Shown piece after piece: positions 4,141 to 22,716 of a stretch of DNA of 64,000 bases. Location: NCBI GenBank assembly GCA_037442085.1, contig JBBIQY010000002.1, positions 6,583 through 70,582 of the forward strand. The letters run 5' to 3'. Under the pieces are notes generated by a model that saw only the letters and a list, made by a program, of their open reading frames with translations, had not been told where the DNA came from and made no database searches. The position numbers were made by a program, and so were the translations under genes. How positions within the stretch are numbered: the stretch's first letter is position 1; each line of letters begins with the position of its first letter. This stretch comes from Anaerolineae bacterium. GTDB taxonomy: Bacteria > Chloroflexota > Anaerolineae > Anaerolineales > UBA6663.

Positions 4141-4148
4141 ACTGAATT

Positions 4149-5108: not shown

Positions 5109-5180
5109 TTTCAAAATTCAAACTCCAAACCTCAAAACTCAAATTGAAGTTTGAAGTTTGGAGTTCGGAGTTTGGAGTTC
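5109..5180 (+). repeat. Heptamer-array hairpin, family A, copy 4
   Basis: tttcaaaattcaaactccaaacctcaaaactcaaa / ttgaagtttgaagtttggagttcggagtttggagttc. It ends 6 nt before the GTG at 5186. Confidence 0.85.
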
Positions 5181-5185
5181 ATCTC

Positions 5186-7312
<2,127 letters not shown>

Positions 7313-7321
7313 CTCAACGGC

Positions 7322-7771: not shown

Positions 7772-7810
7772 GACGGCTAAAATCAACCGAAACATCGTGA
7801 GGAGGCCATC

Positions 7811-8641
7811 ATGTGTGTCCCAGTATGTCGGGCAAAGATCGCACAAAACATGAGCCGCCGCAGTTTCCTGAAGCTGGCCGGAGCGGCGACGGCAGCGACG
7901 GCGGCGGCCGCTTGCGCCCCGTCAACGCCGGCCCCTGCCGCCGAAGGCCCGAAATACTCGTTCAGTCGCGTGGTGGACCTGACCCACACCATCACGCCCG
8001 AGTTCCCGACCTACGGCGGCGAGAAGCAACTGGAATTCGAAACGCTCGTCACCCTGGCCGCGGACGGCTACAACATGTACAAATGGCTGCTGGTGGAGCA
8101 CACCGGCACCCATATGGACGCGCCCTTTCATTTCTCCGATCGGGATAGCGCCGATCTGATCCCGCTGGAAAATCTGATCGGCCCGCTGGCGGTGGTGGAC
8201 ATTCGCGCTAAAGCCGAGAACAACCCCGACGCGCAACTGACGACGGACGATCTGAAAACCTGGGAAAGCCAATATGGGCCGATCCCCACAGGGGGCATCG
8301 TGGCCATGTACAGCGGCTGGGACGCCCATACCCGGACCGGCAAATTCCGCAACGCCGACGCTAACGGGGTGATGCACTTCCCCGGCTTTCACATCGAGGC
8401 CATCGAGTTTCTGCTGGCCGAACGGGATGTGAAGGGGATCTTCGTAGATACACTGAGCCTGGACTACGGGCCCTCGACCGATTTTGTGGTGCACTACAAA
8501 TGGCTGCCGGCCAACCGCTGGGGGATGGAATGCGTCGCTAACCTGGGGCAACTGCCGGCCAAAGGCGCTATGGCAATCGTGGGCGGCCCGAAGATCGCCG
8601 GAGCGACCGGCGGGCCAGGCCGCGTGATCGCCCTGCTATGA
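7811..8641 (+). CDS. Cyclase / arylformamidase (kynurenine formamidase) family protein with a Tat-type signal and possible lipobox
   Basis: SRRSFLKLAGAATAATAAAACAP signal and the HTGTHMDAPFHF cyclase motif. GAGGAGG lies 6 nt before ATG 7811. Confidence 0.8.
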   Translation: MCVPVCRAKIAQNMSRRSFLKLAGAATAATAAAACAPSTPAPAAEGPKYSFSRVVDLTHTITPEFPTYGGEKQLEFETLVTLAADGYNMYKWLLVEHTGTHMDAPFHFSDRDSADLIPLENLIGPLAVVDIRAKAENNPDAQLTTDDLKTWESQYGPIPTGGIVAMYSGWDAHTRTGKFRNADANGVMHFPGFHIEAIEFLLAERDVKGIFVDTLSLDYGPSTDFVVHYKWLPANRWGMECVANLGQLPAKGAMAIVGGPKIAGATGGPGRVIALL

Positions 8642-8964
8642 AATGCCCGTACTGCGACTTTGCCGGCTCGCGCATGAAACTTCACCGGCATCTCGGCGAG
8701 GCGCACCTCGACCAGGTAACGACCAAGCACGACGCGGCGACGGGCAAGATGCGCTACGTCATCGGCTGTCCGGTATGCGGCCTGAAATACCAGCACGCCG
8801 TCAAGCCGCGCTACAGGGACGCGCGCTTCCTCGAAGAATACAGGGCCGAGATTGCGCTGGTGGCTTTCGACCAACTGCTTTACCATCTCGAAGAGAAACA
8901 CCCGGAACAAACTTCAAACTCAAAACTACGCCATTCAAACACCCCGCCTGAAGCTGCGGTTTGA
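8638..8964 (+). CDS. Small protein with two CxxC...HxxxxH (C2H2-like) zinc-finger motifs
   Basis: CPYCDF..HRHLGEAH and CPVCGL...YHLEEKH. ATGA overlap with the upstream stop. The C-terminal 15 aa are encoded by the hairpin left arm. Confidence 0.55.
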   Translation: MKCPYCDFAGSRMKLHRHLGEAHLDQVTTKHDAATGKMRYVIGCPVCGLKYQHAVKPRYRDARFLEEYRAEIALVAFDQLLYHLEEKHPEQTSNSKLRHSNTPPEAAV

Positions 8965-8972
8965 AGTTGAAA
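8908..8972 (+). repeat. Heptamer-array hairpin, family A, copy 5
   Basis: caaacttcaaactcaaaactacgccattcaaac ... ggtttgaagttgaaattt, straddling the stop at 8962-8964. Confidence 0.7.
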
Positions 8973-8991
8973 TTTTTCGCCAGAGGTGAAC

Positions 8992-9429
8992 ATGGCGCTC
9001 TGCAACAACTGCAACATCCCCGAGAACCTCTACTACTGGGTAGAGAAACACACCTGGTGCCGGCGCGAGTCGGATGGAACCGTCGTCGTCGGCATCACCG
9101 ACGTGGCCCAGCACCTCGCCAAATCCATCATCTCGGCCACGCCGAAAGAGGCGGGCAAGCCGATTAAGAAGGGCAAAAGCGCAGGCACGGTCGAGAGCGG
9201 CAAATGGGTCGGGCCGGTGACCGCGCCCGTAAATGGCACCATCACCGAAGTCAACGCCGCGCTCAAGACCAGGCCCGGCCTGTTGAATGCCGATCCCTAT
9301 GGCGAGGGCTGGTTCATCAAAATCAAACCCGACAACTGGGAGACGGACTCGGCCGATCTCGTCACGGGCGACGCCGGGATTGCGGCGTATCAGAAGTTCC
9401 TGGACGAGCAGGGCATCAAATGCGAATAA
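8992..9429 (+). CDS. lbpA: GcvH-like lipoate-binding protein (LbpA-like) 1
   Basis: GcvH fold motifs: VGITDVAQ, lipoyl-lysine context VESGKWVG, NADPYGEGWF. AGAGG lies 5 nt before ATG 8992. Confidence 0.85.
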   Translation: MALCNNCNIPENLYYWVEKHTWCRRESDGTVVVGITDVAQHLAKSIISATPKEAGKPIKKGKSAGTVESGKWVGPVTAPVNGTITEVNAALKTRPGLLNADPYGEGWFIKIKPDNWETDSADLVTGDAGIAAYQKFLDEQGIKCE

Positions 9430-9500
9430 CCCCAAACTCCCAAACCCAAAACTCAAATCGCAAACGATGGCTTGGGGTTTGGGGCTTGAAGTTTGCAGTT
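9429..9500 (+). repeat. Heptamer-array hairpin, family A variant, copy 6
   Basis: ccccaaactcccaaacccaaaactcaaa / cttggggtttggggcttgaagtttg. CCCCAAAC pairs with GTTTGGGG as a perfect 8 bp stem. It ends 3 nt before ATG 9503. Confidence 0.8.
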
Positions 9501-9502
9501 CA

Positions 9503-9952
9503 ATGATCTACTACGGCTGCGACATCCCCGAAGACCTGTTCTTCGACTTCGAGCGCGATCTGTGGGTGCGCTTCGAGGCCGACGGCGTGGCCACGCTGGG
9601 GATGACGGACACGGCTCAGACGCGCGGCGGAAAACTGGTGAACATCCAGTTCAAACGGGTCGGCAAACTGCTCAAACAAGGCCAGAGCGCCGCCATCATC
9701 GAGTCGGCCAAGTGGGTCGGGCCGTTCCCCATGCCGTTCAGCGGCGTGATCACCGCGACCAACGAAGCGACATTTCGCCGCGACATACTGATCGCCAACC
9801 GCGATCCTTACGGGGAAGGCTGGCTGGTCAAAGTGCAGCCGACGGCCATCGAAACCGAACGGGAGCATTTGATCACGGGCGAGGCCGCCGTCGCCAAATA
9901 CAAACACCGCATCGTCGAGCTGGGCCTGAAATGCTTTCGCTGCCTGGATTGA
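9503..9952 (+). CDS. lbpA: GcvH-like lipoate-binding protein (LbpA-like) 2
   Basis: LGMTDTAQ, IESAKWVG, NRDPYGEGWL. Paralog of the previous gene. Confidence 0.85.
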   Translation: MIYYGCDIPEDLFFDFERDLWVRFEADGVATLGMTDTAQTRGGKLVNIQFKRVGKLLKQGQSAAIIESAKWVGPFPMPFSGVITATNEATFRRDILIANRDPYGEGWLVKVQPTAIETEREHLITGEAAVAKYKHRIVELGLKCFRCLD

Positions 9953-9969
9953 ACCTCGAGGAGTCTTGA

Positions 9970-10410
9970 ATGTCCACCAACGGTCACGACGCTTTTCCAC
10001 CCGAGCTTTACTACGACCGCGTGACGCACGTTTGGGCGCGGGACGATGGCGCGACCGTGACCATCGGCCTCGACGCGCTCGGCCTGGAGTCGCTCGGCGA
10101 CATGGCCTACCTCAGTTTGCAGGCCAGCGGCGTTCCGGTGCGACGCGGCGAGGCCATCGGCAGCTTGGAGGCCGCGAAGATGGTAGGGGATCTGATCGCG
10201 CCCGTCAGCGGCGTCATCGCCGCGCGCAACGAGGAGGTACTGCGCGACCCCGGCCTCATCAACCGCGACCCCTACCGCGCGGGCTGGCTCGTCCAGATTA
10301 CGCCTTCCGATTGGGCGCGTGAGTCCGCCGAACTGGTGCACGGCGCGGCTTTGACAGCCTGGGTGAAAGCGGAAGTCGAGCGGTATCGGATGCAGGGATG
10401 GATTAAGTGA
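9970..10410 (+). CDS. lbpA: GcvH-like lipoate-binding protein (LbpA-like) 3
   Basis: IGLDALG, LEAAKMVG, NRDPYRAGWL. Lacks the terminal cysteines of copies 1 and 2. Confidence 0.8.
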   Translation: MSTNGHDAFPPELYYDRVTHVWARDDGATVTIGLDALGLESLGDMAYLSLQASGVPVRRGEAIGSLEAAKMVGDLIAPVSGVIAARNEEVLRDPGLINRDPYRAGWLVQITPSDWARESAELVHGAALTAWVKAEVERYRMQGWIK

Positions 10411-10488
10411 ACTCCCAACTTCAAAACTCCCAACTTCAAAACTCAGACTTCAAAGCGGCAAACCTCTGCACTTTCGAGTTTGAAGTTA
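10410..10488 (+). repeat. Heptamer-array hairpin, family A, copy 7
   Basis: aactcccaacttcaaaactcccaacttcaaaactcagacttcaaa ... ctttcgagtttgaagttaactc. It ends 6 nt before ATG 10494. Confidence 0.75.
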
Positions 10489-10493
10489 ACTCA

Positions 10494-11702
10494 ATGACAA
10501 CTTGGCGACTCATTACAGACGACAATGTCACCGCCTCCTTCGGCCTCGCCGCCGACGAGTGCCTGGCCAGGCGCGTGGGCGCGGGCCAGAGCCAGCCGAC
10601 TCTGCGGCTGTACACGTATCGCTCGCACTGCGCGCTCGTCGGACGCTTCCAGAATCTCGACAACGAAATTCAACGCGACTACTGCGAGGCGCACGGCGTC
10701 GCCCTCAACCGCCGGCCCACCGGCGGCGGCGCGATCCTCATGGGCCAGGACCAACTCGGCGTGGCGCTGACCCTCCCCGCGAGCGGCGACGACGCCTACA
10801 GCCGCGCCCGTGAACTCATGGGGCAATTCTCAGCCGGCATCGTCCACGCCCTCGAGGCGCTCGGCATAAGGGCCAACTTTCGGCGCAAGAACGATATCGA
10901 AGTCGGCGGCAAAAAGATCGTGGGGTTGGGAATCTACCGGGCGCACGGCCTCCCGCGACCCGATTCAGCGCCCTCAGAACCGTCGGCGACTCAGCGATCC
11001 GGCCTGCTCTTCCATGCTTCCCTGCTCGTCGGCCTCGACATCCCGCTGATGCTGCGCGTGCTCAAAACGCCGTTCGAGAAAATTTCGGACAAAGCGATCG
11101 CCACCGTCGCCGAGCGCGTTACGACGGTGCGCCGTGAAATCGGACGCGAGATTGAACTAAACGAAGTCCGCGCGCGAGTCGTCGAGGGTTATGCGGCCGC
11201 TTTCGGAGCCTCGCTCACTCCCGGCACATTCACCGGCGATGAGAGTCTCGCCATCTCCGATCTCCAATCTCAGAAGTACGACTCCCACGAGTGGGTGCAC
11301 CAAATCACTGCCGTCCCCGACGCGCTCGGCTCGGCCACCGTCAAAACGCCCGGCGGCCTGCTCGACGTCCGCGTGACCTTGGCGGGCAACACCATTAAAG
11401 CGGTATTCGTCGGCGGAGACTTCTTTGCCGCCGAGGGCGCGATCGCCGACCTCGAGGCCAGTCTGCGCTGGCACGCCGCCGAGCCGCGCGCCGTGGCCGC
11501 GACCCTCGCTCAGGCATACGCGAAACGCGCCAGCGATCTCGCCATGCTGCCGCTCGACTCGCTCACCCAGGCGATTCAACAAGCGGTTCGCCGCGCCCAA
11601 GTAGCCGAGTCTGCCGCGCGCGCCGACCCGTACGGGTGCTTTGTGAATCCCGATCCCCAACCGCAAACCTCGAAGGAGTTACACCCGAGGGTCGCGCTTT
11701 GA
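10494..11702 (+). CDS. Lipoate-protein ligase, two-domain sLpl(AB)-like
   Basis: BPL/LplA/LipB core motifs NRRPTGGGAILMGQDQL and GGKKIVGLG, plus an LplA C-terminal-like domain. Adjacent to the LbpA and LipS genes. Confidence 0.8.
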   Translation: MTTWRLITDDNVTASFGLAADECLARRVGAGQSQPTLRLYTYRSHCALVGRFQNLDNEIQRDYCEAHGVALNRRPTGGGAILMGQDQLGVALTLPASGDDAYSRARELMGQFSAGIVHALEALGIRANFRRKNDIEVGGKKIVGLGIYRAHGLPRPDSAPSEPSATQRSGLLFHASLLVGLDIPLMLRVLKTPFEKISDKAIATVAERVTTVRREIGREIELNEVRARVVEGYAAAFGASLTPGTFTGDESLAISDLQSQKYDSHEWVHQITAVPDALGSATVKTPGGLLDVRVTLAGNTIKAVFVGGDFFAAEGAIADLEASLRWHAAEPRAVAATLAQAYAKRASDLAMLPLDSLTQAIQQAVRRAQVAESAARADPYGCFVNPDPQPQTSKELHPRVAL

Positions 11703-11718
11703 AGTTTGGAGTTCGAGC
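11655..11718 (+). repeat. Degenerate family A hairpin, copy 8 (clear right arm only)
   Basis: The right arm tttgaagtttggagttcgag (11697-11718) is clear. The left partner ccccaaccgcaaacctcgaa is weak. Confidence 0.4.
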
Positions 11719-11728
11719 TTGCTCTGAT

Positions 11729-12622
11729 ATGCCTGAAATCACGTTTCACGCGCCCGGCCTCAAACGCTTCAAGACGACCGAGTACGCCGAACAGGAGGCG
11801 ACCCGTTTCGTGTCCATCAGCGTGACGGGGACTGAGTGCGCCCTGGCGTGTGAGCATTGCAAGACACATGTTCTCGAGGGCATGACGGCCCTGCCCCGTT
11901 TCGATGGCACGCTGTTCGATTTATGCTGCGAGCTGGCGGAACGCGGCGCGCGCGGGGTGCTGGTCTCCGGCGGCTGCGACAGGCGCGGGCGTGTCCCGCT
12001 CCTCCGCCACCTCCCGGATTTGATCCGCGTCCGCCGCGAACTTGGCTTCCTCATCCGCGTCCACCCCGGCCTGCCCGACGAGGAAACCGTCGCGGGCCTG
12101 GCCGAGGTTGGGATTGACGGCGCGATGGTGGACATCATCGGCGACGACGCGACCATCCGTGAGGTTTATCATCTCGACGCGACCATCGCCGAATATGAGG
12201 CTGTGCTGGAGCGGCTGGAACGCTACCAGGTGCCTGCCGTGCCACACATCATTCTGGGGTTACACTTCGGGCAGATGCGCGGCGAGTGGACGGCGCTCGA
12301 CATGATCACGCGCCACGCCCGGAAATTCCTTGTGCTTGTGATCCTCATGCCGCTCACCGGGACGCCCATGGTCGGCGTGACGCCGCCGCCCGTCTCGGAG
12401 ATTGCCCGGTTCTTCGCCCTTGCGCGCCGTGCCTTGCCCGCTACGCCGGTCATGCTCGGCTGTGCGCGCCCGCTCGGCAAAATCAAAATCGAGATTGATC
12501 GCGCCGCCGTGGACGCCGGGCTGAACGGCATTGCGTATCCGGCGGAAGGCATTATCGCCTACGCCCGCACGCGCGGCCTGACGCCAAAATTTGTGGATGC
12601 GTGTTGTGGAGTGCAGTGGTAG
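11729..12622 (+). CDS. Radical SAM protein, LipS1/LipS2-type lipoyl synthase candidate (which of the two is not resolved)
   Basis: CALACEHC is a CxxxCxxC motif. ~297 aa. Sits between the ligase and the second radical SAM gene. Confidence 0.7.
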   Translation: MPEITFHAPGLKRFKTTEYAEQEATRFVSISVTGTECALACEHCKTHVLEGMTALPRFDGTLFDLCCELAERGARGVLVSGGCDRRGRVPLLRHLPDLIRVRRELGFLIRVHPGLPDEETVAGLAEVGIDGAMVDIIGDDATIREVYHLDATIAEYEAVLERLERYQVPAVPHIILGLHFGQMRGEWTALDMITRHARKFLVLVILMPLTGTPMVGVTPPPVSEIARFFALARRALPATPVMLGCARPLGKIKIEIDRAAVDAGLNGIAYPAEGIIAYARTRGLTPKFVDACCGVQW

Positions 12623-12683
12623 CGAACAGTAGAGAGCGAGTGGCGGGTAGCCGATAGCCATCCGTCATCAGCCGAAGGAGTCT

Positions 12684-13766
12684 ATGGCGAAAGTCACGCT
12701 TTCCTCCAAAGAACAGGCCGAGCAGTTGCAGATCAGCCCGGAGTATGTTCGCATTTCGATGGCCGCCGCGATCGAGCTGGGCCTCAAGCCGGGGCGTATG
12801 TTCCGCGATGTTCACTGTGGCTGCATCAATCTGCTGCAAAACTATCCCGAAGGATGCTACGCCAACTGCTCGTATTGCGGGCTGGCCCGCGAACGGCCCG
12901 GCGCGCCGGAAGACAACACCTTCATCCGCGTGGCGTGGCCTCTTTTCCCGACCGACCTCGTCGCGGAAAAGATCGCCGAGCGCGAGGCGTGCATCGGGCG
13001 GGTGTGCATCGCTCAGGTGCAGGACCATCGCGCCTACGAGGATTTGATTGACATGATCGGGCGCGTGCGCCGATTGAGCGCCGTGCCCATCTCGGCGCTG
13101 GTCTCGGCGACCACGCTGAACGAAGAGCGGTTGAGCTGCCTCAAGGACGCGGGCGCAGACATTATTGGCGTCGGGCTGGACGCGGCCTCCGAAGCCGTGT
13201 TCTACAACACCCGCGGGCGGGGCGTCAGAGGGCCGCACGACTGGGTTCATCACTGGCAGATTGTCCGAGCCGCACGCCGCTTGTTCGGGCCGCTGAAAGT
13301 CAATTGCCACATCATCGTCGGCCTCGGCGAGACCGACCGCGACCTGGTCAATCTCTTCTACCAGCTCAAGTCGGAACAGATTGCCGGCTACCTGTTCTCG
13401 TTCAACCCGGAACCCGGCACGGCCATGCAGGCCACGCCGCGCGCGCCCATTCACCGCTGGCGACGGATTCAACTCACGAAACATCTCATCGAGCATCACG
13501 ACCTGTCGCCCGAGGCGATTGAATTCGACGCCGAAGGGAACATCGTCCGTCTCAACGCGCCCCAGCTGATGGTGGAGGTCGCCGTGAACACCGGTCTGCC
13601 GTTTATGACCAACGGCTGCCCCGACCGCAACGGCGTGATGGCCTGCAACCGCCCCTACGGCTCATACCGCCCCGGCGAAGAATTCCGCGACTATCCATTT
13701 TTGCCAAACGCCGATGATTTGATCGTCATCCGCCAGCAGATGCGATTGGAAGAAATCTGGCAGTGA
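12684..13766 (+). CDS. Radical SAM protein, BioB/LipS-type, second lipoyl synthase candidate
   Basis: CYANCSYCGL is a CxxxCxxC motif. C-terminal Cys-rich NGCPDRNGVMACNRP. GAAGGAG precedes the ATG. Confidence 0.7.
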   Translation: MAKVTLSSKEQAEQLQISPEYVRISMAAAIELGLKPGRMFRDVHCGCINLLQNYPEGCYANCSYCGLARERPGAPEDNTFIRVAWPLFPTDLVAEKIAEREACIGRVCIAQVQDHRAYEDLIDMIGRVRRLSAVPISALVSATTLNEERLSCLKDAGADIIGVGLDAASEAVFYNTRGRGVRGPHDWVHHWQIVRAARRLFGPLKVNCHIIVGLGETDRDLVNLFYQLKSEQIAGYLFSFNPEPGTAMQATPRAPIHRWRRIQLTKHLIEHHDLSPEAIEFDAEGNIVRLNAPQLMVEVAVNTGLPFMTNGCPDRNGVMACNRPYGSYRPGEEFRDYPFLPNADDLIVIRQQMRLEEIWQ

Positions 13767-13815
13767 TGTATTGCGAATTCCATGCGGCGAATGCCGCGCA
13801 GACGGAACACGCGCG

Positions 13816-14826
13816 ATGCCCTCCCCGATTCGTCTCCTGAGCCTCGGCGCTATCCACTGGCTCCGCACCCAGTCGGTCTATCACGCCCTGGCCGAGACGA
13901 TGACGGCGGGGTCGCCCGACACGATTGTGCTGACGCGGCCGGCGCAGCCCTATCTGTGCCTCGGCTACCATCAGGAATTGGAGGCGGTGCTCGATCGCGC
14001 GGCGTGCGCGGCGCTGGGCCTGCCCATCGTGCGGCGCAGGGTAGGCGGCGGCGCGACGTATCTTGACTCGGATCAACTTTTTTATCAGTGCCTGTTTCAT
14101 CACACGCGCGTCCCGGCGACCGTTAGCGGCGTATATGCGCAACTGCTGGCCGCGCCGGTGGCGACGCTGCGGGCGCTGGGCCTGAGCGTCGAGTTGCGGG
14201 GCGAGAACGAGATCGAGGTGGGGGGCGATCGCGATGGTCATCGCGCCGGGAAACGAATTGCCGGGATCGGCGGCGGCAGGATTGGGGAGGCAGCGGTGGT
14301 CGTCGGCAATATCCTGTTCGATTTTGACTATGAAGCGATGGCGCGCGCCTGGCGCGTCCCCTCGGAGTCGTTCCGCCGGTTGGCCGCCGAGGCCCTGCGC
14401 GAGTGCGTCACGACTCTGAGGCGCGAATTGCCGCGCCCCGTCCCGCCCGATGACGTTCAGGCCGTCCTGATTTACGAATTCGCCCGCGCCCTCGGCCGTC
14501 CGGTGAAGCCCGGCGAGCTGACGCCGCAGGAGGCGCGCAAAATTGGCGAGCTCGACCGGCGCCTCGTCTCCACAAAATGGCTGAACCTGCAGGCCAACGG
14601 CGCGAAGCCGATGACGGCGCTCAAAATCTCGCGCGGCGTCTTCATCCACGCCGCCGAAGCGAAGATCGCAAACTACAAAGTGCGCGCGGCCTTTCGCGTT
14701 CGCGACGACGTGATCGAGCGGACGATGCTGGAAAGCGAACCGGAGCGCGACTGGCGAGAGGCAGCAGAAAACTTGAGGGGGACGAAAGTGAGAGAATGGG
14801 TGCGGGGGGTGGAGGCGCAAATATGA
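13816..14826 (+). CDS. LplA/LipB-superfamily paralog 2 (two-domain, motifs intact)
   Basis: VRRRVGGGATYLDSDQLFY and GKRIAGIGGG, plus a C-terminal domain resembling the LplA C-domain. Confidence 0.7.
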   Translation: MPSPIRLLSLGAIHWLRTQSVYHALAETMTAGSPDTIVLTRPAQPYLCLGYHQELEAVLDRAACAALGLPIVRRRVGGGATYLDSDQLFYQCLFHHTRVPATVSGVYAQLLAAPVATLRALGLSVELRGENEIEVGGDRDGHRAGKRIAGIGGGRIGEAAVVVGNILFDFDYEAMARAWRVPSESFRRLAAEALRECVTTLRRELPRPVPPDDVQAVLIYEFARALGRPVKPGELTPQEARKIGELDRRLVSTKWLNLQANGAKPMTALKISRGVFIHAAEAKIANYKVRAAFRVRDDVIERTMLESEPERDWREAAENLRGTKVREWVRGVEAQI

Positions 14827-15572
14827 TCGCCCCCGGCGCCCTGCGCCTGCTCAACCTCGGCCCCACCGCGTGGGCGCGGACGCAATCCGTGTACCGCGCC
14901 ACCGCCGAATTGTTTCCAGCCGACGGCCGGGGCGCAGTAATCTTCGCTCAATCGCTGCACCCCTATCTCACGCACGGCGTCCAGCAGTCTGCCTCGGAGA
15001 CGTTCGACCTGGCGGCGTGTGAGCGCCTGGGCCTGCCGGTGGTGCGCCGACCGTTCCCCGGCAGCGCCGAATACTGTGACGTGAACCAATTGCTGTTTCA
15101 GTGGATTCTGCCGCCCCCCGTCGGGGCGAGGCACGCGACGTTCCTGCGGGTGGCCACGGCAGTGCTGGCCGCGTTGCAGGCGTTCGGCCTCGCCGCCGAT
15201 TACGACGGGGCGGGACGGTTTGCGGTGAAAGGCGCGCGTCTGGGAACGCTTGCAGGTGGGCGATATGGGGCGGCGCTGGTGTGCCTTGGGGCGGTGTATC
15301 TGGGATATGACCCGCAGCGCCTGGCCCAGCTCGAGCGCGCGCCGCGCCTCGAGAGAACCACATCGTTGTGGGCCGAGGCCCCGCGCCCGCTCTCGCCCGA
15401 GATGGTGCAGGCGGCCCTCCTCGAGCACTTCGCGCGCACGCTGGGTCGGCCCATCGTGCGCGATACGCCGCGCGTGCCGGAGACGCAGGCGGCGAAACGC
15501 CTCGAAGCCGAGCTGCTTGGCGTAGAATTGGGAGACCTGCCGCCGGCAGAGGCCGGGCTGGACGGTGATTGA
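14823..15572 (+). CDS. LplA/LipB-superfamily paralog 3, N-domain only, glycine motif degenerate
   Basis: Aligns to paralog 2 (LRLLNLGP.., LGLPVVRRP..), but GGG is replaced by PGS in VRRPFPGSAEYCDVNQL. ATGA overlap with paralog 2. Confidence 0.6.
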   Translation: MIAPGALRLLNLGPTAWARTQSVYRATAELFPADGRGAVIFAQSLHPYLTHGVQQSASETFDLAACERLGLPVVRRPFPGSAEYCDVNQLLFQWILPPPVGARHATFLRVATAVLAALQAFGLAADYDGAGRFAVKGARLGTLAGGRYGAALVCLGAVYLGYDPQRLAQLERAPRLERTTSLWAEAPRPLSPEMVQAALLEHFARTLGRPIVRDTPRVPETQAAKRLEAELLGVELGDLPPAEAGLDGD

Positions 15573-15685: not shown

Positions 15686-16777
15686 ATGCCCTCCCAAGAC
15701 GAAATCCTGAAAGCCCTCTCGCGGGTGCAAGAACCCGAGCTCCATCGTGACCTCGTCTCGCTCAACATGATCCGCGATCTGAAAATCACCGACGGGTCGG
15801 TGCAGTTCACGGTCATGCTCACTACGCCCGCCTGCCCGCTGCGAGGCCGCATCGAGCGTGAGTGCCGCGAGGCGGTGCTGGCCGTCCCCGGCGTGAAGGA
15901 AGTCGCGATCAGGTTCGACGCGAACGTGGTGCGCGACGCCCGAATCGGGAGGGGCGGCCCCGAAGGCCGGCCTCTGCCGTTTCGCAACACCATCGCCGTC
16001 GCCTCCGGCAAAGGCGGCGTGGGTAAGACCACGGTCGCAGTCAACCTCGCCATCGCCCTCGACCGCCTCGGCGCGCGCGTCGGCCTGCTCGATGCGGACA
16101 TCTACGGCCCCAACGCGCCGATAATGTTGGGAGCGCAAGGCAGCCCGCGCGTCGCCAACAACCGTCTCCTGCCGCTCAACGCCTACGGCTTGAAAGTCAT
16201 GAGCATGGGCTTTCTGGTCAAGCCGGAGCAGGCCGTGGTGTGGCGCGGGCCGATGTTGCACTCCGCGCTCAGCCAGTTCCTCGGCGACGTGGAATGGGGC
16301 GACCTTGACTATCTGGTGATTGACCTCCCGCCGGGCACGGGCGACGTGCCACTCTCGCTTGCCCAGCTCCTGCCGCTCACCGGGGCCGTCATCGTCACCA
16401 CCCCCCAGGACGTGGCGCTGGCCGACGTGCGCAAAGGGATGACGGCGTTCAACCAGCTCAACGTCCCGCTCCTCGGCGTGATCGAGAACATGAGTTATTT
16501 CGTCTGCCCGCACTGCGGCGAGCGCACCGACATCTTCTCGCATGGCGGCGGGCGGCATGCAGCGGAGGAACTCGGCCTGCCGTTCCTCGGCGAGGTGGCC
16601 CTTGACCCGGCCATCCGCTCCGGCGGCGATGACGGCCAGCCCATCGTTGCCGTCGCCCCCCACTCGCCGCAGGCCCAATCCATCACCGCCATCGCAGGCG
16701 CGCTCGCAGCCAGGATCAGCGTGCTCAACCTGCAGCGCGAACAGGAAGGGCTGATTCAAATCACGGAGATTGGGTGA
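15686..16777 (+). CDS. apbC: Mrp/ApbC/NBP35-family Fe-S cluster carrier ATPase with N-terminal DUF59-like domain
   Basis: Deviant Walker A VASGKGGVGKTT, CPHCG cluster-ligand motif, N-terminal VQEPELHRDLVSLNMI. Confidence 0.9.
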   Translation: MPSQDEILKALSRVQEPELHRDLVSLNMIRDLKITDGSVQFTVMLTTPACPLRGRIERECREAVLAVPGVKEVAIRFDANVVRDARIGRGGPEGRPLPFRNTIAVASGKGGVGKTTVAVNLAIALDRLGARVGLLDADIYGPNAPIMLGAQGSPRVANNRLLPLNAYGLKVMSMGFLVKPEQAVVWRGPMLHSALSQFLGDVEWGDLDYLVIDLPPGTGDVPLSLAQLLPLTGAVIVTTPQDVALADVRKGMTAFNQLNVPLLGVIENMSYFVCPHCGERTDIFSHGGGRHAAEELGLPFLGEVALDPAIRSGGDDGQPIVAVAPHSPQAQSITAIAGALAARISVLNLQREQEGLIQITEIG

Positions 16778-16804
16778 AGGAGAGTGGAGCTTGAGGAGCG
16801 CCCC

Positions 16805-18352
16805 ATGAACTACGGTTTCGTCATTGACAACCGCAAGTGCATCGGCTGTCATGCCTGCTCGACCGCCTGCAAATCCGAGAATGAAGTGCCGCTCGGCGTC
16901 AATCGCACGTGGGTGAAGTACACGGAGAAAGGCGTCTTCCCTAACACGCGCCGCTACTTCCAGGTGACGCGCTGCAATCATTGCGCCAACCCGCCGTGCG
17001 TGCACATCTGCCCGGTCACGGCCATGTACCAGCGCACGGACGGCATCGTCGAGTTCGACCCAGCGCGCTGCATCGGCTGCAAAGCCTGCATGCAGGCCTG
17101 CCCCTACGACGCCATCTACATTGACCCCGACTCGCACACGGCGGCGAAATGCCACTACTGCGCGCATCGAACCGACGTCGGCCTCGAGCCGGCCTGCGTG
17201 ATTGTGTGCCCGGAACATGCGATCATCGCCGGCGACATGGACGATCCCCAATCCGAAATTGCTCGCGTGCTGGCGACGCAACAGGTGCGCACGCGCAAGC
17301 CGGAGCAGGGCACACGCCCCAAACTCTTCTACATTGACGCCGAGGAATCCTCCATCGTCCCGACGCTCGCGACGCAGGAGGGCGGGATGTTGTGGGCCGC
17401 ATGGCCCGATCACAGCGCCGGCCACTGGCGCGGGCCGATCCACTTCAGCGAGGGCAACATGGCAAGCGCGCTCGTCAACGCCGCCGCCGCGCCGCGCGAG
17501 ACATACAACGTCCCGCACAAGATCCCGTGGCACTGGCAGGTGCCGGCGTATCTCGTCGCCAAATCCATCGGCGCCGGGGCGTTCATCGTCGCCGGCCTCG
17601 GCCTCGCGCTCGGTTTGCTTCCGGCCACGCTATTCTTCACCACCATCGCAACGTTTCTCTCGCTTCTTTTCATCGGCCTCAATACCGGCCTCCTGGTCTG
17701 GGACCTGGATCGCCCCGACCGCTTCTGGACGATCCTGATCCGCCCGCAATGGAAGTCGTGGCTGGCGCGCGGGGCATTCATCCTCGTCGGCTTCTCCGGC
17801 GTCGGCGGCCTGTTCTTCCTCGGTCAATTGCTCAATCTCCAATTCTCGAATCTGCTGTTGTGGCCCGGCGTCGTCCTCGCCGTCCTCTCGGCGACGTACA
17901 CGGCGTTTCTCTTCACACAGGCCGAGGGTCGCGACCTGTGGCAGAGCACGCTCCTGCCGTGGCACATGTTCGTGCAGGCGATGATGGCCGGAGCGGCAGC
18001 GTTGTTGATCGCCGGCCTGTTCTTCGATCTGGCGCCCGAAGCGACGCGTGTTCTGGCGTGGACGTTCGGCCTGAGCCTGCTCGTCAACCTTGCCCTCACG
18101 CTGGGGGGCGAGTTCGCCGTGCCACACGCGAGCGCCGTGGCGGCCGCCGCTGCGCATCTGATCACGCGCGGGCGTTACCGGAATCACTACCGGGGCAGCC
18201 TCGTCTTCGGATTGGGTCTGCCGCTGGCTCTCGTCGCCCTGGCGAGCGACTCGCCTGCCGCCTTAGCCATTGCCGGCGCCCTGTCGCTTGTTGGGCTGTT
18301 CGCTTACGAATGGGCGTTCGTGATGGCGCCGCAGGAAGTGCCGAACAATTGA
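16805..18352 (+). CDS. Fusion of a 4x[4Fe-4S] PsrB/DmsB/NrfC-like subunit with a NrfD/PsrC-like integral membrane subunit
   Basis: CIGCHACSTAC, CNHCANPPCVHICP, CIGCKACMQACP and CHYC...CVIVCP, followed by ~300 aa with about 8 hydrophobic helices. No signal peptide. GAGGAG lies 6 nt before ATG 16805. Confidence 0.8.
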   Translation: MNYGFVIDNRKCIGCHACSTACKSENEVPLGVNRTWVKYTEKGVFPNTRRYFQVTRCNHCANPPCVHICPVTAMYQRTDGIVEFDPARCIGCKACMQACPYDAIYIDPDSHTAAKCHYCAHRTDVGLEPACVIVCPEHAIIAGDMDDPQSEIARVLATQQVRTRKPEQGTRPKLFYIDAEESSIVPTLATQEGGMLWAAWPDHSAGHWRGPIHFSEGNMASALVNAAAAPRETYNVPHKIPWHWQVPAYLVAKSIGAGAFIVAGLGLALGLLPATLFFTTIATFLSLLFIGLNTGLLVWDLDRPDRFWTILIRPQWKSWLARGAFILVGFSGVGGLFFLGQLLNLQFSNLLLWPGVVLAVLSATYTAFLFTQAEGRDLWQSTLLPWHMFVQAMMAGAAALLIAGLFFDLAPEATRVLAWTFGLSLLVNLALTLGGEFAVPHASAVAAAAAHLITRGRYRNHYRGSLVFGLGLPLALVALASDSPAALAIAGALSLVGLFAYEWAFVMAPQEVPNN

Positions 18353-18402
18353 ATCGCTCAAACGCTGACGACGCTGATGACGCTGAAAACCAGTGCTTCA
18401 GT

Positions 18403-18780
18403 GTGCTCGGGTATCCGCACTCGGAACTCTCGGCCCGGATCATCGCCGTCGCGCAGGAAGTGCATCGCACGCTCGGCCCCGGTTTCAAGGAGGTCTTCTA
18501 CCAGCGGGCGAGGTCGAAGGAATTGCAGGCCGATGGATAGGGACACGCCCGCGAAGTCTGGATTGACGTCTACTACAAAGGCGAAAAGTTGGGCCGCAAG
18601 GGCGTGGATTTTGTGGTTGATGTCTGCCTGGTCGAAACGAAAGCCAAAGCCGCATTGGAAGACGCAGATTACATCCAGACACTCTCCTATCTCAAAGCTT
18701 CGGGCTTCGAGGTGGGGCTGCTCATCAACTTCGGCGGCCCCAAACTGGAAGTCAGGCGCTTGATTAACCAGAAACGCTGA
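18403..18780 (+). pseudogene. GxxExxY-family (PD-(D/E)XK-like) small protein gene interrupted by an in-frame TAG
   Basis: HRTLGPGFKEVFY (GxxExxY) ...LQADG-TAG(18538-18540)-GHAREVWIDVYYKGEKLG...VETKA...LLINFG all lie in one frame. No ATG; GTG at 18403. Confidence 0.65.
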
Positions 18781-18830
18781 TTGCCTCTCCACTCTCAGCG
18801 TCCTCAGCATAATCAGCGCCTCAACGATAT
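18773..18830 (+). repeat. Family B element (AACGCTGATT-loop-TCAGCGTCCTCAGC-ataaTCAGCG)
   Basis: aacgctgattgcctctccactctcagcgtcctcagcataatcagcgcc shares both ends with 7271-7310. Confidence 0.6.
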
Positions 18831-18843
18831 CAAAGGACCCGGC

Positions 18844-21732
18844 ATGACAGACACAATCACCCGCCTCCCCCTCCAACTCACCGACGCCGGCGAGCGCCTG
18901 CAACAATACCCGCCGCCTGAAAAATGGGATGACTGGGTAGAGTGGGATCACAAGCTGTGGCCGAAGAAGGTTCCGAAGCATTACATGCTCGTGCCGACGG
19001 TGTGCTTCAACTGCGAGTCGGCTTGCGGGTTGTTGGGCTGGGTGGACAAAGAGACGCTACAGGTGCGCAAGTTCGAGGGCAACCCGGTGCATGCCGGCAG
19101 CCGGGGCCGCAACTGCGCCAAGGGGCCGGCGACGATCAACCAGGTCAACGACCCCGACCGCATCCTGTATCCGCTCAAGCGCGCCGGCAAGCGCGGCGAG
19201 GGCAAATGGGTGCGGGTGACGTGGGCCGAGGCGCTGAAGGACATTGGCGGCCGAATCCGCACAGCGTTTCAGGAAGGACGACACAACGAGATCATGTATC
19301 ACGTTGGCCGGCCCGGCCACGACGGCGTGATGGAGTGGGTGCTTTTGGCATGGGGCATTGACGGCCACAACTCGCACACCAACATCTGCTCGTCGAGCGC
19401 GCGGACGGGCTACGCCTTCTGGATGGGCTTCGACCGCCCCAGCCCCGATCACGCAAACGCCAACGTCATCCTGCTCATCAGCAGCCACCTCGAGACCGGG
19501 CACTACTTCAACCCGCATGCCCAGCGCATCATCGAGGGCAAGATGCGCGGCGCGAAGTTGATCGTGATGGACACGCGCCTCTCCAACACCGCCTCGCTGG
19601 CCGATACGTGGATCGCGCCCTGGCCCGGCTCGGAGCCCGCCATCCTGCTTGCCATCGCCAACCACCTCATCACCACCGGCCGGTACAACCGCGAGTTCGT
19701 GAGGCGGTGGGTCAACTGGGAGGAATATCTCAACTTCAGAATTCAAACTTCAAGCCCCCAATCTCCCGTCTCCAACCTCCCGATTTCTTTCGAAGCCTTT
19801 GAGGCCGCGTTGAAAGAACGCTATGCCAAATATACGTTCGAATACGCAGCCAAAGAGTCGGGCGTGGAGGCAGACATTCTGCGCCGCATTGCGGAGGAGG
19901 TCGCCAATTGTGGCGGGAAGCTGGCCACGCATAACTGGCGCAGCGCCGCGGCGGGCAACCTGGGCGGGTGGCAGGTGGCGCGTTGCCTGTTCTTCCTGAA
20001 CGTGCTCACCGGCAGCATCGGCGTGGAGGGCGGCACCTCGGCCAACGCCTGGGACAAATGGGTGCCGCGCCCGCACAAGTTTCCGCCGCACAGCAAACGC
20101 TGGAACGAGCTGTCGTGGCCGCGTGAGTATCCGCTGTCGTACTTCGAGATGAGCTTCCTGCTGCCGCATTTCCTCAAGGAAGGGCGCGGCAAACTCGACG
20201 TGTACTTCACCCGCGTCTACAACCCACTGTGGACGAACCCCGACGGCTTCACCTGGCTCGAGGCGCTGCGCGACGAGTCGAAGATCGGCTGTCACGTGGC
20301 GCTCACGCCGACGTGGAGCGAGTCGGCCTGGTGGGCCGATTATGTGCTGCCGATGGGCCACGGCTCCGAGCGGCACGATCTGATGAGCCAGGAAACGCAC
20401 GCCGGGCAGTGGCTCGCCTTCCGCCAGCCGGTGAGGCGCGTGGCGCTGGAGCGCCTGGGCAGGAAAGTGAATCGCACCTACGAGGCCAACCCCGGGCAGG
20501 TGTGGGAAGAAACCGAGTTCTGGATTGATCTGAGTTGGGAGATTGACCCCGACGGCACGCTGGGCATCCGCCAATACTTCGAGTCGCCCTATCGCCCCGG
20601 CGAGCGCCTGACCGTGGACGAATACTACGGCTGGATGTTCGAGAACACCGTCCCCGGTCTGCCGGAGGCCGCGGCCAAAGAGGGGCTGACGCCCCTGGCA
20701 TACATGCGCAAGTACGGCGTGTTCGAGATTCGCAAAGGGGCGCTGGCCGAATACGAGCGCGCGTTGACCGCCGAAGAAATGGCCGGCGCGCAGGTGGACG
20801 CGGCGACCGGCATCATCTACACCCAGGCGCCCGCCGCGCCGCCTCAAAACATCGTGCCAACCCCCGCCCCCGTCTCGACGGACAGGGGGCGGCCCATCGG
20901 CGTGATGGTGGACGGCCAACCCCGGTTCGGCTTCCGCACCCCCTCGCGCAAACTCGAATTCTTCTCTTCGACTCTGCACCAGTGGGGCTGGCCCGAATAT
21001 GCCTTGCCCGATTACATCGAAAGCCATGTGCATCCCAGTCGGCTCAACCGCGAGGCCAACGAGTTCGTCCTGCTTTCGACCTATCGCCTCCCGACCCTGA
21101 TTCATACCCGCAGCGCGAACGCCAAGTGGCTCGTCGAAATCTCGCACTCCAACCCGACCTGGATTCACACTTCGGACGCGGAGCGGCTCGGCGTGCGCAC
21201 CGGCGACCTGGTGCGCGTTCAAACCGAGATCGGCTATTTCGTGGATAAAGTCTGGGTCACCGAGGGCATCCGCCCCGGCGTCGTCGCCTGCTCCCATCAC
21301 CTCGGGCGCTGGCGGCTGGCCGAGGGCGACGGCACCAACCGGATCGCGTCCGCGCTCGTCCAACTAAACGAGTCGGACGGCGAATGGAATCTGCAGCAGG
21401 TCCACGGCGTCCAGCCGTACAAGTCCAGCGACCCCGACACCGAACGCATCTGGTGGAGCGATGCGGGCGTGCACCAGAATCTCACCTTTCCCGTTCAGCC
21501 CGATCCAATCAGCGGGATGCACTGCTGGCATCAGAAGGTGACGGTGACACGCGCCCAGGCCGGCGACCGCTACGGCGACGTGCACGTGGACACGCACAAG
21601 GCGCACGCGGTCTACAAACGCTGGCTGGCCATGACCCGCCCGCCGACCGGCGAATGGCGGCGACCCCATTGGATGCTGAGGCCGTTCCGGCCGGATGCGA
21701 GCGCCTACCGAATTATGAATTATGAAGGCTGA
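18844..21732 (+). CDS. Molybdopterin (bis-MGD) oxidoreductase catalytic subunit without Tat signal, PsrA/SoeA-like
   Basis: N-terminal [4Fe-4S] motif CFNCESACGLL...C and the NCAKG motif. 962 aa, the size of a DMSO-reductase-family enzyme. No RRxF signal peptide. Confidence 0.8.
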   Translation: MTDTITRLPLQLTDAGERLQQYPPPEKWDDWVEWDHKLWPKKVPKHYMLVPTVCFNCESACGLLGWVDKETLQVRKFEGNPVHAGSRGRNCAKGPATINQVNDPDRILYPLKRAGKRGEGKWVRVTWAEALKDIGGRIRTAFQEGRHNEIMYHVGRPGHDGVMEWVLLAWGIDGHNSHTNICSSSARTGYAFWMGFDRPSPDHANANVILLISSHLETGHYFNPHAQRIIEGKMRGAKLIVMDTRLSNTASLADTWIAPWPGSEPAILLAIANHLITTGRYNREFVRRWVNWEEYLNFRIQTSSPQSPVSNLPISFEAFEAALKERYAKYTFEYAAKESGVEADILRRIAEEVANCGGKLATHNWRSAAAGNLGGWQVARCLFFLNVLTGSIGVEGGTSANAWDKWVPRPHKFPPHSKRWNELSWPREYPLSYFEMSFLLPHFLKEGRGKLDVYFTRVYNPLWTNPDGFTWLEALRDESKIGCHVALTPTWSESAWWADYVLPMGHGSERHDLMSQETHAGQWLAFRQPVRRVALERLGRKVNRTYEANPGQVWEETEFWIDLSWEIDPDGTLGIRQYFESPYRPGERLTVDEYYGWMFENTVPGLPEAAAKEGLTPLAYMRKYGVFEIRKGALAEYERALTAEEMAGAQVDAATGIIYTQAPAAPPQNIVPTPAPVSTDRGRPIGVMVDGQPRFGFRTPSRKLEFFSSTLHQWGWPEYALPDYIESHVHPSRLNREANEFVLLSTYRLPTLIHTRSANAKWLVEISHSNPTWIHTSDAERLGVRTGDLVRVQTEIGYFVDKVWVTEGIRPGVVACSHHLGRWRLAEGDGTNRIASALVQLNESDGEWNLQQVHGVQPYKSSDPDTERIWWSDAGVHQNLTFPVQPDPISGMHCWHQKVTVTRAQAGDRYGDVHVDTHKAHAVYKRWLAMTRPPTGEWRRPHWMLRPFRPDASAYRIMNYEG
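19731..19790 (+). repeat. In-CDS heptamer tract inside the molybdoenzyme gene
   Basis: caacttcagaattcaaacttcaagcccccaatctcccgtctccaacctcccgatttcttt encodes NFRIQTSSPQSPVSNLPISF. Confidence 0.6.
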
Positions 21733-21780
21733 AGGAAGAAGGAAGCAATGGAGATTCAGCCTTCATCCTTCAGCCTTCAT
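21722..21780 (+). repeat. Perfect 15-bp inverted repeat (ATGAAGGCTGAAGGA / TCCTTCAGCCTTCAT) bracketing a gene junction
   Basis: The left arm (21722-21736) contains the upstream TGA. The loop holds a purine-rich SD and ATG 21748. The right arm (21766-21780) lies in codons 7-11 of the next gene and is half-duplicated at 21755-21766. Confidence 0.85.
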
Positions 21781-22716
21781 CCTTTGCTTTCCTACCTCTG
21801 GCTTCACGAACCTGATGCCGAGACCATTGTCCGCGCTGTGAATGAGCTGGGCCTGCCCGCAGCCGCGCCCGCCGAGCTTGCCTCGGCCTACACCGATGTC
21901 TTTGTGCTCAACGTCCCGCCTTACGGCACGGTGTTCACGGGCCCCGATGGCGAGATGAACGGCCCGGAGGCGCAGCAACTGGCGGCGTTGTTCGAGTTGC
22001 ACGCCTATTCTCCACCCGAACTGAACGAGGTTGGTGCGCCCGACCATGTGGGTGTGTGCCTTGGCTTTCTGGCGCATTTGGAGGAAAGGGGATTGGAGAT
22101 GAGAGATTGGAGATTGGAGGTTGGAGATTGGGGCTTCGATTGGATCCCGCCAGCGTGTCTCGCTATAGAACGCGAACCAACCGCACATGCCTTCTACCGC
22201 GCCCTGGCGGCCACTACTCGACAACACCTGTTTGTGAGGCTGAACGAAGCCAGGCCCTCCGGGGCTGAGGCCCCTTCGGCAAGCTCATGGCAGGCGCCGC
22301 GCTTCGCTCAGGATAACGGCGATCATCCGCACTCTGAAATCTACAATCTGCAATCCGAGGACGAAGTCCGCCTGCACCACATCATCCGCTTCTTCCTCGC
22401 CCCCGCCCGGTGCGGCATGTTCCTTTCGCGCTCGCAGATGGGGCGGATGGCCGCAGAGTTGGGGCTGCGCCTCCCGTTCGGCTCGCGGTTCGAAGTGGCC
22501 GAGAGGCTGTTTGCGTCTGCGGGGGAGACGGATCAGGTTGAGCAGCTGATCGCGGCGCTGGAAGCCGAGATTAGTGATTGGAGAATGGCATATCGCGCCT
22601 GGGCGGAGAAGTGCGCGGCGTGGCGGCCATACGCCGAAGCCTGGCTGGCACGGACGGCGCAGGCGCAGCGTACGCTGGCCGAGATGCAGCAAATAGTGAC
22701 GACGACGCTCACCTGA
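21748..22716 (+). CDS. TorD/DmsD/NarJ-like redox-enzyme maturation chaperone with an extra C-terminal domain
   Basis: YTDVFVLNVPPYGTVF...PDHVGVCLGFLAHL matches the TorD-family pattern. Residues ~150-322 are unrecognised. Confidence 0.6.
   Translation: MEIQPSSFSLHPLLSYLWLHEPDAETIVRAVNELGLPAAAPAELASAYTDVFVLNVPPYGTVFTGPDGEMNGPEAQQLAALFELHAYSPPELNEVGAPDHVGVCLGFLAHLEERGLEMRDWRLEVGDWGFDWIPPACLAIEREPTAHAFYRALAATTRQHLFVRLNEARPSGAEAPSASSWQAPRFAQDNGDHPHSEIYNLQSEDEVRLHHIIRFFLAPARCGMFLSRSQMGRMAAELGLRLPFGSRFEVAERLFASAGETDQVEQLIAALEAEISDWRMAYRAWAEKCAAWRPYAEAWLARTAQAQRTLAEMQQIVTTTLT
22090..22143 (+). repeat. In-CDS heptamer tract (complement orientation, GATTGGA x ~6) inside the TorD-like gene
   Basis: ggattggagatgagagattggagattggaggttggagattggggcttcgattgg encodes GLEMRDWRLEVGDWGFDW. 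Confidence 0.65.

Follow-up and report, generated by a model that had tools for sequence, protein, structure and literature searches.

How is the toxic sulfite that an sHdr system releases in the cytoplasm carried on to sulfate? The question is raised by a 64,000-nucleotide stretch of the Anaerolineae bacterium contig JBBIQY010000002.1 (here called the window; G+C across it is 62–68%), where a type II sHdr-LbpA sulfur-oxidation cluster is followed by four co-directional genes within 15.6–22.8 kb: an Mrp/ApbC ATPase, a fused electron-transfer and anchor subunit (BC), a molybdoenzyme catalytic subunit (A) and a TorD-like chaperone. A preliminary description made from the sequence had read the last three as a cytoplasm-facing candidate for a SoeABC-like sulfite dehydrogenase. 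We find that the enzyme belongs to a different and widespread family, in which B and C are fused and the NrfD-type anchor is predicted to sit upside down in the membrane. Its gene context tips the balance moderately towards a non-orthologous, SoeABC-like cytoplasmic sulfite:quinone oxidoreductase.

Subunit architecture

The BC gene (16784..18352, + strand) was characterized by Pfam and NCBIfam searches, its match to PsrB and an analysis of transmembrane segments and charge. Counted from GTG 16784 the protein has 522 residues, although ATG 16805 is the probable start. It consists of a ferredoxin domain with four [4Fe-4S] clusters (residues ~9–205), a linker (~206–250) and an eight-helix NrfD-type membrane domain (251–514). 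The sequence shows sixteen cysteines arranged in four groups of the CxxCxxCxxxC type, and Pfam assigns the ferredoxin part to Fer4_11 (PF13247, E = 3.6e-24). The membrane part matches NrfD (PF03916, E = 5e-18, residues 244–517) and its eight hydrophobic segments are conserved in 57 sequences, which identifies it as an NrfD/PsrC-type anchor. Thermus PsrB (2vpw_B, E = 1.6e-56) is the closest solved relative of the B part, and TtrB its best NCBIfam model, at 195 bits versus a cut-off of 416; BLASTP gave 171 bits to TtrB, 133 to PhsB and 130 to SoeB. The NrfD domain matches TtrC weakly (E = 7e-6) and showed no match to solved PsrC by sequence search, a profile search not having been run.

The fusion had been called unusual in the preliminary description, and a survey corrects this. 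A genome scan in which a single genome stood for each species gave more than 600 matching stretches, and the best 80 (55–80% identity, full length), spanning about a dozen phyla, were analysed as loci. Counted by tblastn plus open-reading-frame bounds, B and C share one reading frame at 70 of these 80 loci, most of the others being truncated contigs. The B–C fusion is a hallmark of the family and not a peculiarity of the window genome. More distant relatives, in Sulfurovum (39%) and Azoarcus (32%), keep B and NrfD as separate genes, arranged B-C-A-TorD.

Catalytic subunit A (18844..21732, + strand; 962 residues) was identified as a molybdenum/tungsten-bis(pyranopterin guanine dinucleotide) (Mo/W-bisPGD) enzyme from Pfam matches, a 100% identical database protein of 962 residues (P0001, whose gene call starts at ATG 18844), an alignment of the ligand region and a phylogenetic tree. 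It carries the Molybdop_Fe4S4 (PF04879), Molybdopterin (PF00384) and Molydop_binding (PF01568) domains, an N-terminal [4Fe-4S] motif CFNCESAC...C and the conserved ligand motif HNSHTN(I/V)CS, in which the Mo-ligand cysteine is conserved and followed by serine. The cofactor sites of the enzyme are intact and, with FeS0, molybdopterin and dinucleotide-binding domains, a four-cluster partner and a membrane anchor, it fits the complex iron–sulfur molybdoenzymes. The best solved match of A is Thermus PsrA (2vpw_A, E = 6e-32), and its best NCBIfam model is PhsA, at 188 bits versus a cut-off of 694; every subunit of the module scores far under the cut-offs of the curated NCBIfam equivalog models. Public annotations name the family “molybdopterin-dependent oxidoreductase” or “formate dehydrogenase.” Together with the two-domain, 322-residue TorD-like protein (21748..22716, + strand), these genes are present as they had been described, with strong statistics.

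Two relatives of A, P0124 (48% identity) and P0125 (43%), lack the Mo-ligand cysteine; P0124 also lacks the FeS0 cysteines and has long Pro/Ala-rich insertions. Judged from these losses, both are probably cofactor-less paralogues.

Membrane orientation

No twin-arginine translocation (Tat) or Sec signal was found in A or BC, and no Tat signal in the TorD-like protein. A cryptic Tat signal on A, reached from another start codon, was considered and is excluded: the reading frame cannot extend past TTG 18781 because of a stop at 18778–18780, and a start at 18781 adds 21 residues with neither a twin-arginine motif nor a hydrophobic stretch. In BC and 56 homologues from genomes, the first cluster motif stands right at the N-terminus or is preceded only by a short polar stretch.

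For the topology analysis, 57 BC fusions were aligned, eight conserved hydrophobic segments were defined, and lysines plus arginines were counted in the loops between them. Loops on the ferredoxin side carry 9.9 such residues on average versus 1.2 on the opposite side, with the same bias in 57 of 57 proteins. The bias is reversed (2 versus 7) in a Tat-dependent relative from the Azoarcus plasmid pAZKH, the A subunit of which carries TRRTFLK. Because signals are absent, the charge bias is uniform and it turns round in a Tat-dependent relative, the prediction that the soluble parts are cytoplasmic and the NrfD domain inverted is well supported; the absence of signals and the cytoplasmic placement were both part of the preliminary description and stand. 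This would be a second, independent case of an upside-down NrfD-type anchor, here covalently fused to its ferredoxin, and it bears on how anchors of this type couple quinone chemistry to the membrane potential.

Family placement

The preliminary description had made SoeA-family membership hinge on where the catalytic subunit clusters. As the PDB holds no SoeABC reference and no Soe model appeared among the NCBIfam matches, references were taken from a Burkholderia arboris chromid locus (L094) with the order A-B-C and subunits of 978 (A, no signal), 248 (B) and 315 (C) residues. It was identified through IMG names, proteins 81–85% identical to its A being called “sulfite dehydrogenase (quinone) subunit SoeA”; the SoeA references are therefore betaproteobacterial IMG-named proteins and not the A. 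vinosum protein itself. Plasmid tblastn matches from Thioclava, Caballeronia, Ruegeria and Variovorax were also tried as SoeA references and discarded as other molybdoenzymes.

In a neighbour-joining (not maximum-likelihood) tree of 37 sequences and 746 columns, with 100 bootstraps and NapA as outgroup, window A falls in a tight clade (97% bootstrap) with proteins from Chloroflexus, Ardenticatena, Thermomicrobium, Rhodococcus, Natrinema, Enhygromyxa, Flavilitoribacter, Gemmatimonadota, Acidobacteriota and Planctomycetota. The next node out (100%) adds a few relatives, of which three bear Tat signals, and the one after it (80%) a Tat-dependent PsrA-like group; sister-clade proteins carry RRxFLK. 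SoeA forms a clade of its own (100%) outside the grouping of the window family with Psr-like proteins, and Salmonella PhsA belongs to neither the window clade nor the sister clade. The tree contains neither Thermus or Wolinella PsrA nor ArrA and its deep nodes stand at 34–50%, which makes the placement among reductase families approximate; the position relative to the two PsrA proteins is known from E-values alone.

Pairwise comparisons agree on the distance from SoeA. Window A is 26% identical to SoeA and to PhsA, and 25% to TtrA and DmsA; phmmer gave 415 bits to the Azoarcus protein, 141 to PhsA, 102 to DmsA, 88.7 to SoeA and 72 to TtrA. None of its 120 best homologues is named SoeA. The L094 SoeC belongs to the DmsC family (PF04976, E = 2.7e-15), whereas the window anchor matches NrfD (PF03916) only, and a BLASTP comparison of the window NrfD domain with SoeC gave no match at E < 10. 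On the sequences of all three subunits, the window enzyme clearly lies outside the SoeA family: since A falls in another clade, the membership that the preliminary description had tied to this result fails. “SoeABC-like” does not hold by descent (gene order, anchor family and A clade differ) and survives as a claim on how the enzyme would work, so that the earlier interpretation is right on topology, probably right on function and wrong on family. The module would be a functional SoeABC analogue that arose independently, by convergence, within the Psr-like radiation.

Likeness to SoeABC of A. vinosum and Aquifex aeolicus extends over several features: a predicted cytoplasm-facing, signal-less Mo-bisPGD enzyme with cysteine at the Mo-ligand position, a four-cluster ferredoxin partner, a cofactor-less quinone-interacting anchor, a tie to cytoplasmic sulfite-producing pathways and, probably, the same reaction. 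Wells et al. (2023) place SoeA in the cytoplasm, give it a Cys ligand and group it with the Aquifex “sulfur reductase” in one lineage. Unlike SoeABC, the window module has an A of a separate clade, a NrfD anchor, a fused BC, the order BC-A and a dedicated gene for a two-domain TorD-like protein. The range differs as well: SoeC was reported only from Proteobacteria, a few Clostridia and Aquificae (Calisto & Pereira, 2021; PMC8076601), whereas the window family occurs in Chloroflexota, Acidobacteriota, Bacteroidota, Gemmatimonadota, Myxococcota, Actinomycetota and haloarchaea.

PsrABC/PhsABC (Thermus thermophilus 2VPZ; Salmonella) provide the best solved matches for A and B and share the eight-helix NrfD-type anchor, but in the window family A lacks a Tat signal and is ~200 residues longer, the orientation is inverted, BC is fused, the equivalog cut-offs are missed widely and the hosts are largely aerobes. 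TtrABC shares the gene order B-C-A, an A of ~1,000 residues, the NrfD-type anchor and, in TtrB, the best NCBIfam model for B; in contrast, TtrA and TtrB carry Tat signals, the subunits are unfused and TtrA is as distant as noted above. A parallel for the cell biology is NarGHI/NarJ, likewise a cytoplasm-facing complex iron–sulfur molybdoenzyme that lost Tat export and kept a TorD/NarJ-family chaperone, although the NarI anchor is an unrelated dihaem cytochrome b, the NarG Mo ligand is aspartate and NarG itself is very distant (E = 5e-4).

The Tat-dependent sister clade (L005, Azoarcus sp. KH32C pAZKH; L008) adjoins genes for PhnD/SsuA-type substrate-binding proteins. Either a sigma-54 two-component system or an ArsR-rhodanese regulator accompanies them, and L008 has no NrfD gene.

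Distribution and gene neighbourhoods

Upstream of the module, the window carries a type II sHdr-etf-emo-lbpA-lpl-lipS cluster (90..15572, + strand), recognized from Pfam matches and from an architecture matching the published definition of type II shdr clusters (Tanabe et al., 2024; PMC11094781). It encodes a HdrA-like fragment, an sHdrB3-like CCG/Fer4 protein, ETF, a 901-residue EMO-like CCG protein, two LbpA (GcvH-like) proteins, LplA-like ligases and two radical-SAM LipS-like proteins. The sHdr context, which the preliminary description had relied on, recurs with the same synteny on a second Anaerolineae contig (L099), where the EMO-like gene is followed by LbpA, lipoate ligases, radical-SAM genes, BC, A and TorD, and then by a SulP-STAS-rhodanese gene.

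To survey the neighbourhoods more widely, predicted genes within 8 kb of the module in the 80 loci were clustered, recurrent clusters annotated, and their members recounted by tblastn. A rhodanese fused to a metallo-beta-lactamase (MBL) domain was found at 21 of the 80 loci and a SulP-STAS transporter at 16, followed by YeeE/YedE sulfur-transport halves (8), an SQR-like flavoprotein (6), TusA (5), DsrE (4) and LbpA (2). Most of these sulfur genes point the same way as the module and lie within 5 kb of it. At least one is present at 32/80 loci, including 14 of 17 in Bacteroidota, 7 of 12 in Chloroflexota and 4 of 6 in Myxococcota, with others in Acidobacteriota, Gemmatimonadota and Actinomycetota; no other functional theme emerged among the recurrent neighbour clusters of the 80 loci.

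Individual loci are more explicit. A 584-kb contig (L100), with an A 75% identical to that of the window, shows the series LysR, rhodanese, persulfide dioxygenase (PDO)-rhodanese, TauE, rhodanese, BC, A, TorD; its PDO is close to the CstB-type structures 3tp9/3r2u (E = 6e-137), with BpPRF and ETHE1 more distant. Full-length homologues also lie on plasmids, namely the Thermomicrobium roseum megaplasmid (65%), Rhodococcus jostii RHA1 pRHL3 (59%) and five haloarchaeal plasmids (50–54%). On pRHL3 the order is DsrE, TusA, BC, A, Mrp, and around this block lie three MBL-fold genes, regulators of the ArsR type and thioredoxin.

A gene for a CsoR-family (“metal-sensitive”) regulator stands directly upstream of BC-A on the T. 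roseum megaplasmid (L004, 7084–7362) and in a Thermoanaerobaculia metagenome-assembled genome (L039). This recalls the persulfide sensor CstR.

Proposed function

Both sHdr and PDO release sulfite in the cytoplasm, and SulP and TauE neighbours fit the export of an oxyanion; for these reasons we read the module, most parsimoniously, as a probable cytoplasmic sulfite:quinone oxidoreductase. The preliminary guess of sulfite oxidation, made for one genome, now draws strength from gene neighbourhoods across six or seven phyla. The sequences show the architecture, the predicted orientation, the clade and the neighbourhoods; what we infer from this context is the substrate, the reaction's direction and the coupling to quinone. 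Sulfite would come from sHdr-LbpA or, in other genomes, from rhodanese/persulfide-dioxygenase fusions, and would be oxidized to sulfate at the Cys-ligated Mo centre of A. The two electrons would pass from the [4Fe-4S] cluster of A along the four B-domain clusters, reach a (mena)quinone site within the inverted NrfD part and from there enter the respiratory chain, while sulfate would leave through the SulP- or TauE-type carriers that are often co-encoded. Maturation would be served by the TorD-like protein, as NarJ serves cytoplasmic NarG, and in some lineages by Mrp/ApbC. Among the hosts, R. jostii, T. roseum, Enhygromyxa and Natrinema are strict aerobes, which favours a dehydrogenase feeding the quinone pool over an anaerobic reductase.

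A bolder form of this proposal has, in our estimate, an even chance of being right: that the module represents a previously unrecognized, independently evolved family of cytoplasm-facing sulfite:quinone oxidoreductases, built from two polypeptides with a fused BC and an inverted NrfD domain, which supplies the missing sulfite-to-sulfate step downstream of type II sHdr-LbpA and SQR/PDO pathways in Chloroflexota, Acidobacteriota, Bacteroidota, Gemmatimonadota, Myxococcota, Actinomycetota and haloarchaea. A conserved and widespread family beside sulfite-producing pathways is a concrete candidate for that step. Known sulfite dehydrogenases are often rare or absent in environmental surveys, and SoeABC went undetected in Bohai Sea sediments (PMC12345210); if the proposal is true, a major route of sulfite oxidation escapes the current gene-based surveys, which are limited to SoeABC, SorAB, SUOX and AprAB-Sat. 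The open-access literature yielded no description of the BC fusion or a fused SoeBC, of the inverted orientation of the clade, or of its linkage to PDO or sHdr. The proposal can be tested in cultured and partly genetically tractable hosts: R. jostii RHA1, T. roseum, Chloroflexus aurantiacus, Enhygromyxa salina, Flavilitoribacter nigricans and Natrinema.

Several observations weigh against a role in sulfite oxidation. The nearest characterized relatives of A, PsrA and PhsA, are reductases, and A lies outside the SoeA clade. No sulfur gene occurs within 8–10 kb at 48/80 loci, nor at the Chloroflexus aurantiacus locus, and public annotations point elsewhere (“formate dehydrogenase” or a generic oxidoreductase). 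The putative sulfite role of family members is argued from gene context. In a published transcriptome of T. roseum in nutrient-limited stationary phase, with genes assigned by gene order and product name, A (trd_A0628) stayed at 1.0x while the sHdr cluster (trd_0160–0142) was 45-fold up; BC (trd_A0629) was 1.6x up and the CsoR-family regulator (trd_A0630) 2.3x up. The T. roseum enzyme is expressed, yet not co-induced with sHdr under starvation.

Alternative explanations

Two rival readings are very improbable. Were the module a true SoeABC orthologue with SoeB and SoeC fused, the common predicted orientation, Cys-Ser at the ligand position, a signal-less A of ~960–980 residues and the sHdr context would all be accounted for. 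Against this stand the separate SoeA clade, an identity to SoeA no higher than to PhsA, TtrA or DmsA, a phmmer score below that of PhsA and far below that of the Azoarcus Tat-dependent protein, a SoeC from another anchor family, the gene order A-B-C versus BC-A, and the IMG name “SoeA,” which is never given to the window family. A formate:quinone oxidoreductase is what UniRef and NCBI names suggest, “formate dehydrogenase” being attached to the Chloroflexus and Ardenticatena homologues and to trd_A0628. In the same vein, an NrfD complex with a molybdenum enzyme, tentatively labelled “FqoABC,” has been reported from 48% of Chloroflexi species, Actinobacteria, Chlorobi (model CT0494, PSRLC3) and Crenarchaeota, its formate oxidation inferred from annotation via FdnGH homology and its fusion, orientation and sulfur-gene linkage unmentioned (Calisto & Pereira, 2021; PMC8076601). 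“FqoABC”/PSRLC3 may be a prior sighting of the window family. As an enzyme of formate, however, the module fits poorly: models for formate dehydrogenases score 105–134 bits versus cut-offs of 666–814 (Fdh-alpha 134 versus 666), formate dehydrogenases in the PDB rank behind PsrA and ArrA as matches, the family falls outside the formate dehydrogenase clades judging by the NapA outgroup and the weak model scores, and no formate-related neighbours occur among the recurrent clusters of the 80 loci. The ligand cysteine is moreover followed by serine, not by the histidine of the Sec/Cys-His dyad typical of formate dehydrogenases FdhH and FdnG.

The remaining alternatives concern direction and substrate. 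A cytoplasm-facing, quinol-dependent reductase of sulfane sulfur or polysulfide, thiosulfate or tetrathionate, for example one controlling intracellular sulfane sulfur, would amount to Psr/Phs/Ttr chemistry on the inner face of the membrane and would agree with PsrA and PhsA as closest characterized relatives of A, with TtrB for the B domain and with the B-C-A order common to ttr operons. It would also suit neighbours such as TusA, DsrE and rhodanese, which are sulfane-sulfur carriers; in-vitro promiscuity is known in the group, the Aquifex enzyme that today goes by the name SoeABC having originally been reported to be a sulfur/tetrathionate reductase (PMC4378227). We nevertheless regard it as rather unlikely, as it would undo the work of the co-encoded SQR and PDO in a futile cycle, and the SulP/TauE neighbours fit an oxyanion product needing export. 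Quinol-driven reduction of such couples is also thermodynamically uphill, and many of the hosts are obligate aerobes. A different substrate altogether, be it arsenite, selenite, nitrate or another, with the sulfur linkage reflecting shared regulation or a stress response, is a minor and comparably unlikely contender. In its favour, 60% of loci are without sulfur neighbours, T. roseum expresses the gene constitutively, a function of a general kind is hinted at by the very high conservation among aerobes from many phyla, and the broad Psr/Arr/Ttr radiation handles many substrates (PMC10100899). Yet ars, sel and nitrogen genes were not found among the recurrent neighbour clusters of the 80 loci, and the sulfur association appears independently in six or seven phyla, in operon-like co-directional layouts. 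Sulfite oxidation is the reading that we retain on this gene-context evidence.

Maturation proteins

The chaperone gene was assigned from a PF02613 match, an AF2 model and Foldseek searches. The TorD profile (PF02613) covers only residues 35–117, while the model (mean pLDDT 86, pTM 0.86, all-helical) resolves a TorD/DmsD/NarJ-fold N-domain (~10–170), a disordered linker (181–205) and a conserved helical C-domain (~209–321). Foldseek matched the N-domain only: to DmsD 3cw0/3efp and the putative anaerobic dehydrogenase component 1s9u, with probability 1.00 over ~176–186 columns, to NarJ 8jzd, a structure of NarJ bound to the NarG N-terminus, and to TtrD 2xol. For the C-domain neither a Pfam nor a fold match was found, in keeping with the extra domain of the preliminary description. 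All 235 homologues found are two-domain proteins, and the gene lies directly downstream of A in 30/80 loci. Fold and adjacency to a molybdoenzyme place the protein among the TorD/DmsD/NarJ maturation proteins, with its C-domain outside that family. By analogy with NarJ and cytoplasmic NarG, the chaperone would hold apo-A for cofactor insertion without export.

The Mrp/ApbC gene (15686..16777, + strand) encodes an NBP35-type Fe–S cluster carrier ATPase (PF10609, E = 6e-102; ApbC NF008669, 314 bits) and ends 7 bp before the BC gene; its product is a probable maturation factor for the five-cluster enzyme. Mrp/NBP35 genes also lie 3′ of A, overlapping its stop codon, on R. jostii pRHL3 (L003, 11865–13034) and in Natrinema (L007, 10924–12084). 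A role as universal partner was dropped, as an Mrp gene was found at none of the 80 genome loci (0/80). Since it stands beside the module in the window, Rhodococcus and Natrinema but at no locus of that set, Mrp/ApbC is an optional helper, recruited recurrently but in a lineage-specific manner.

Other features of the window

BC and A are 10–70 bp apart in all other genomes examined, whereas the gap in the window is ~490 bp. It is occupied by a PDDEXK_3 (GxxExxY) gene remnant (18397..18780, + strand), recognized from its translation (PF13366, E = 1.7e-28), which has an in-frame stop at 18538–18540 and shares the reading frame of the A gene. The spacing elsewhere marks the pseudogene as a recent insertion into the window operon, and it does not belong to the enzyme. 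The idea that this insertion created a terminator between BC and A was dropped, as a scan of the + strand after BC found no terminator-like site.

A UbiE/MenG-type (demethyl)menaquinone methyltransferase gene (24329–25054, − strand) lies two genes downstream of the module and may be incidental or quinone-related. The sHdr-LbpA cluster, cytoplasmic in all other respects, includes a “putative cyclase” with a Tat signal (PF04199; 7811–8641, + strand), whose neighbour is a 149-residue protein with no Pfam match (7322–7771). Further downstream, a 2635-residue histidine kinase with ~14 tandem GAF domains is encoded at 26090–33997 (− strand). Two more large Cache/HAMP/GAF sensor kinases (959 and 1929 residues; 37022–45687, + strand) lie downstream of two receiver-domain genes (34239–35180). 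They are followed at 45718–47385 (+ strand) by a gene in which a pyridoxal phosphate-dependent PALP domain, of the cysteine-synthase-like fold family, is fused to a response-regulator receiver, and then by an EamA transporter gene.

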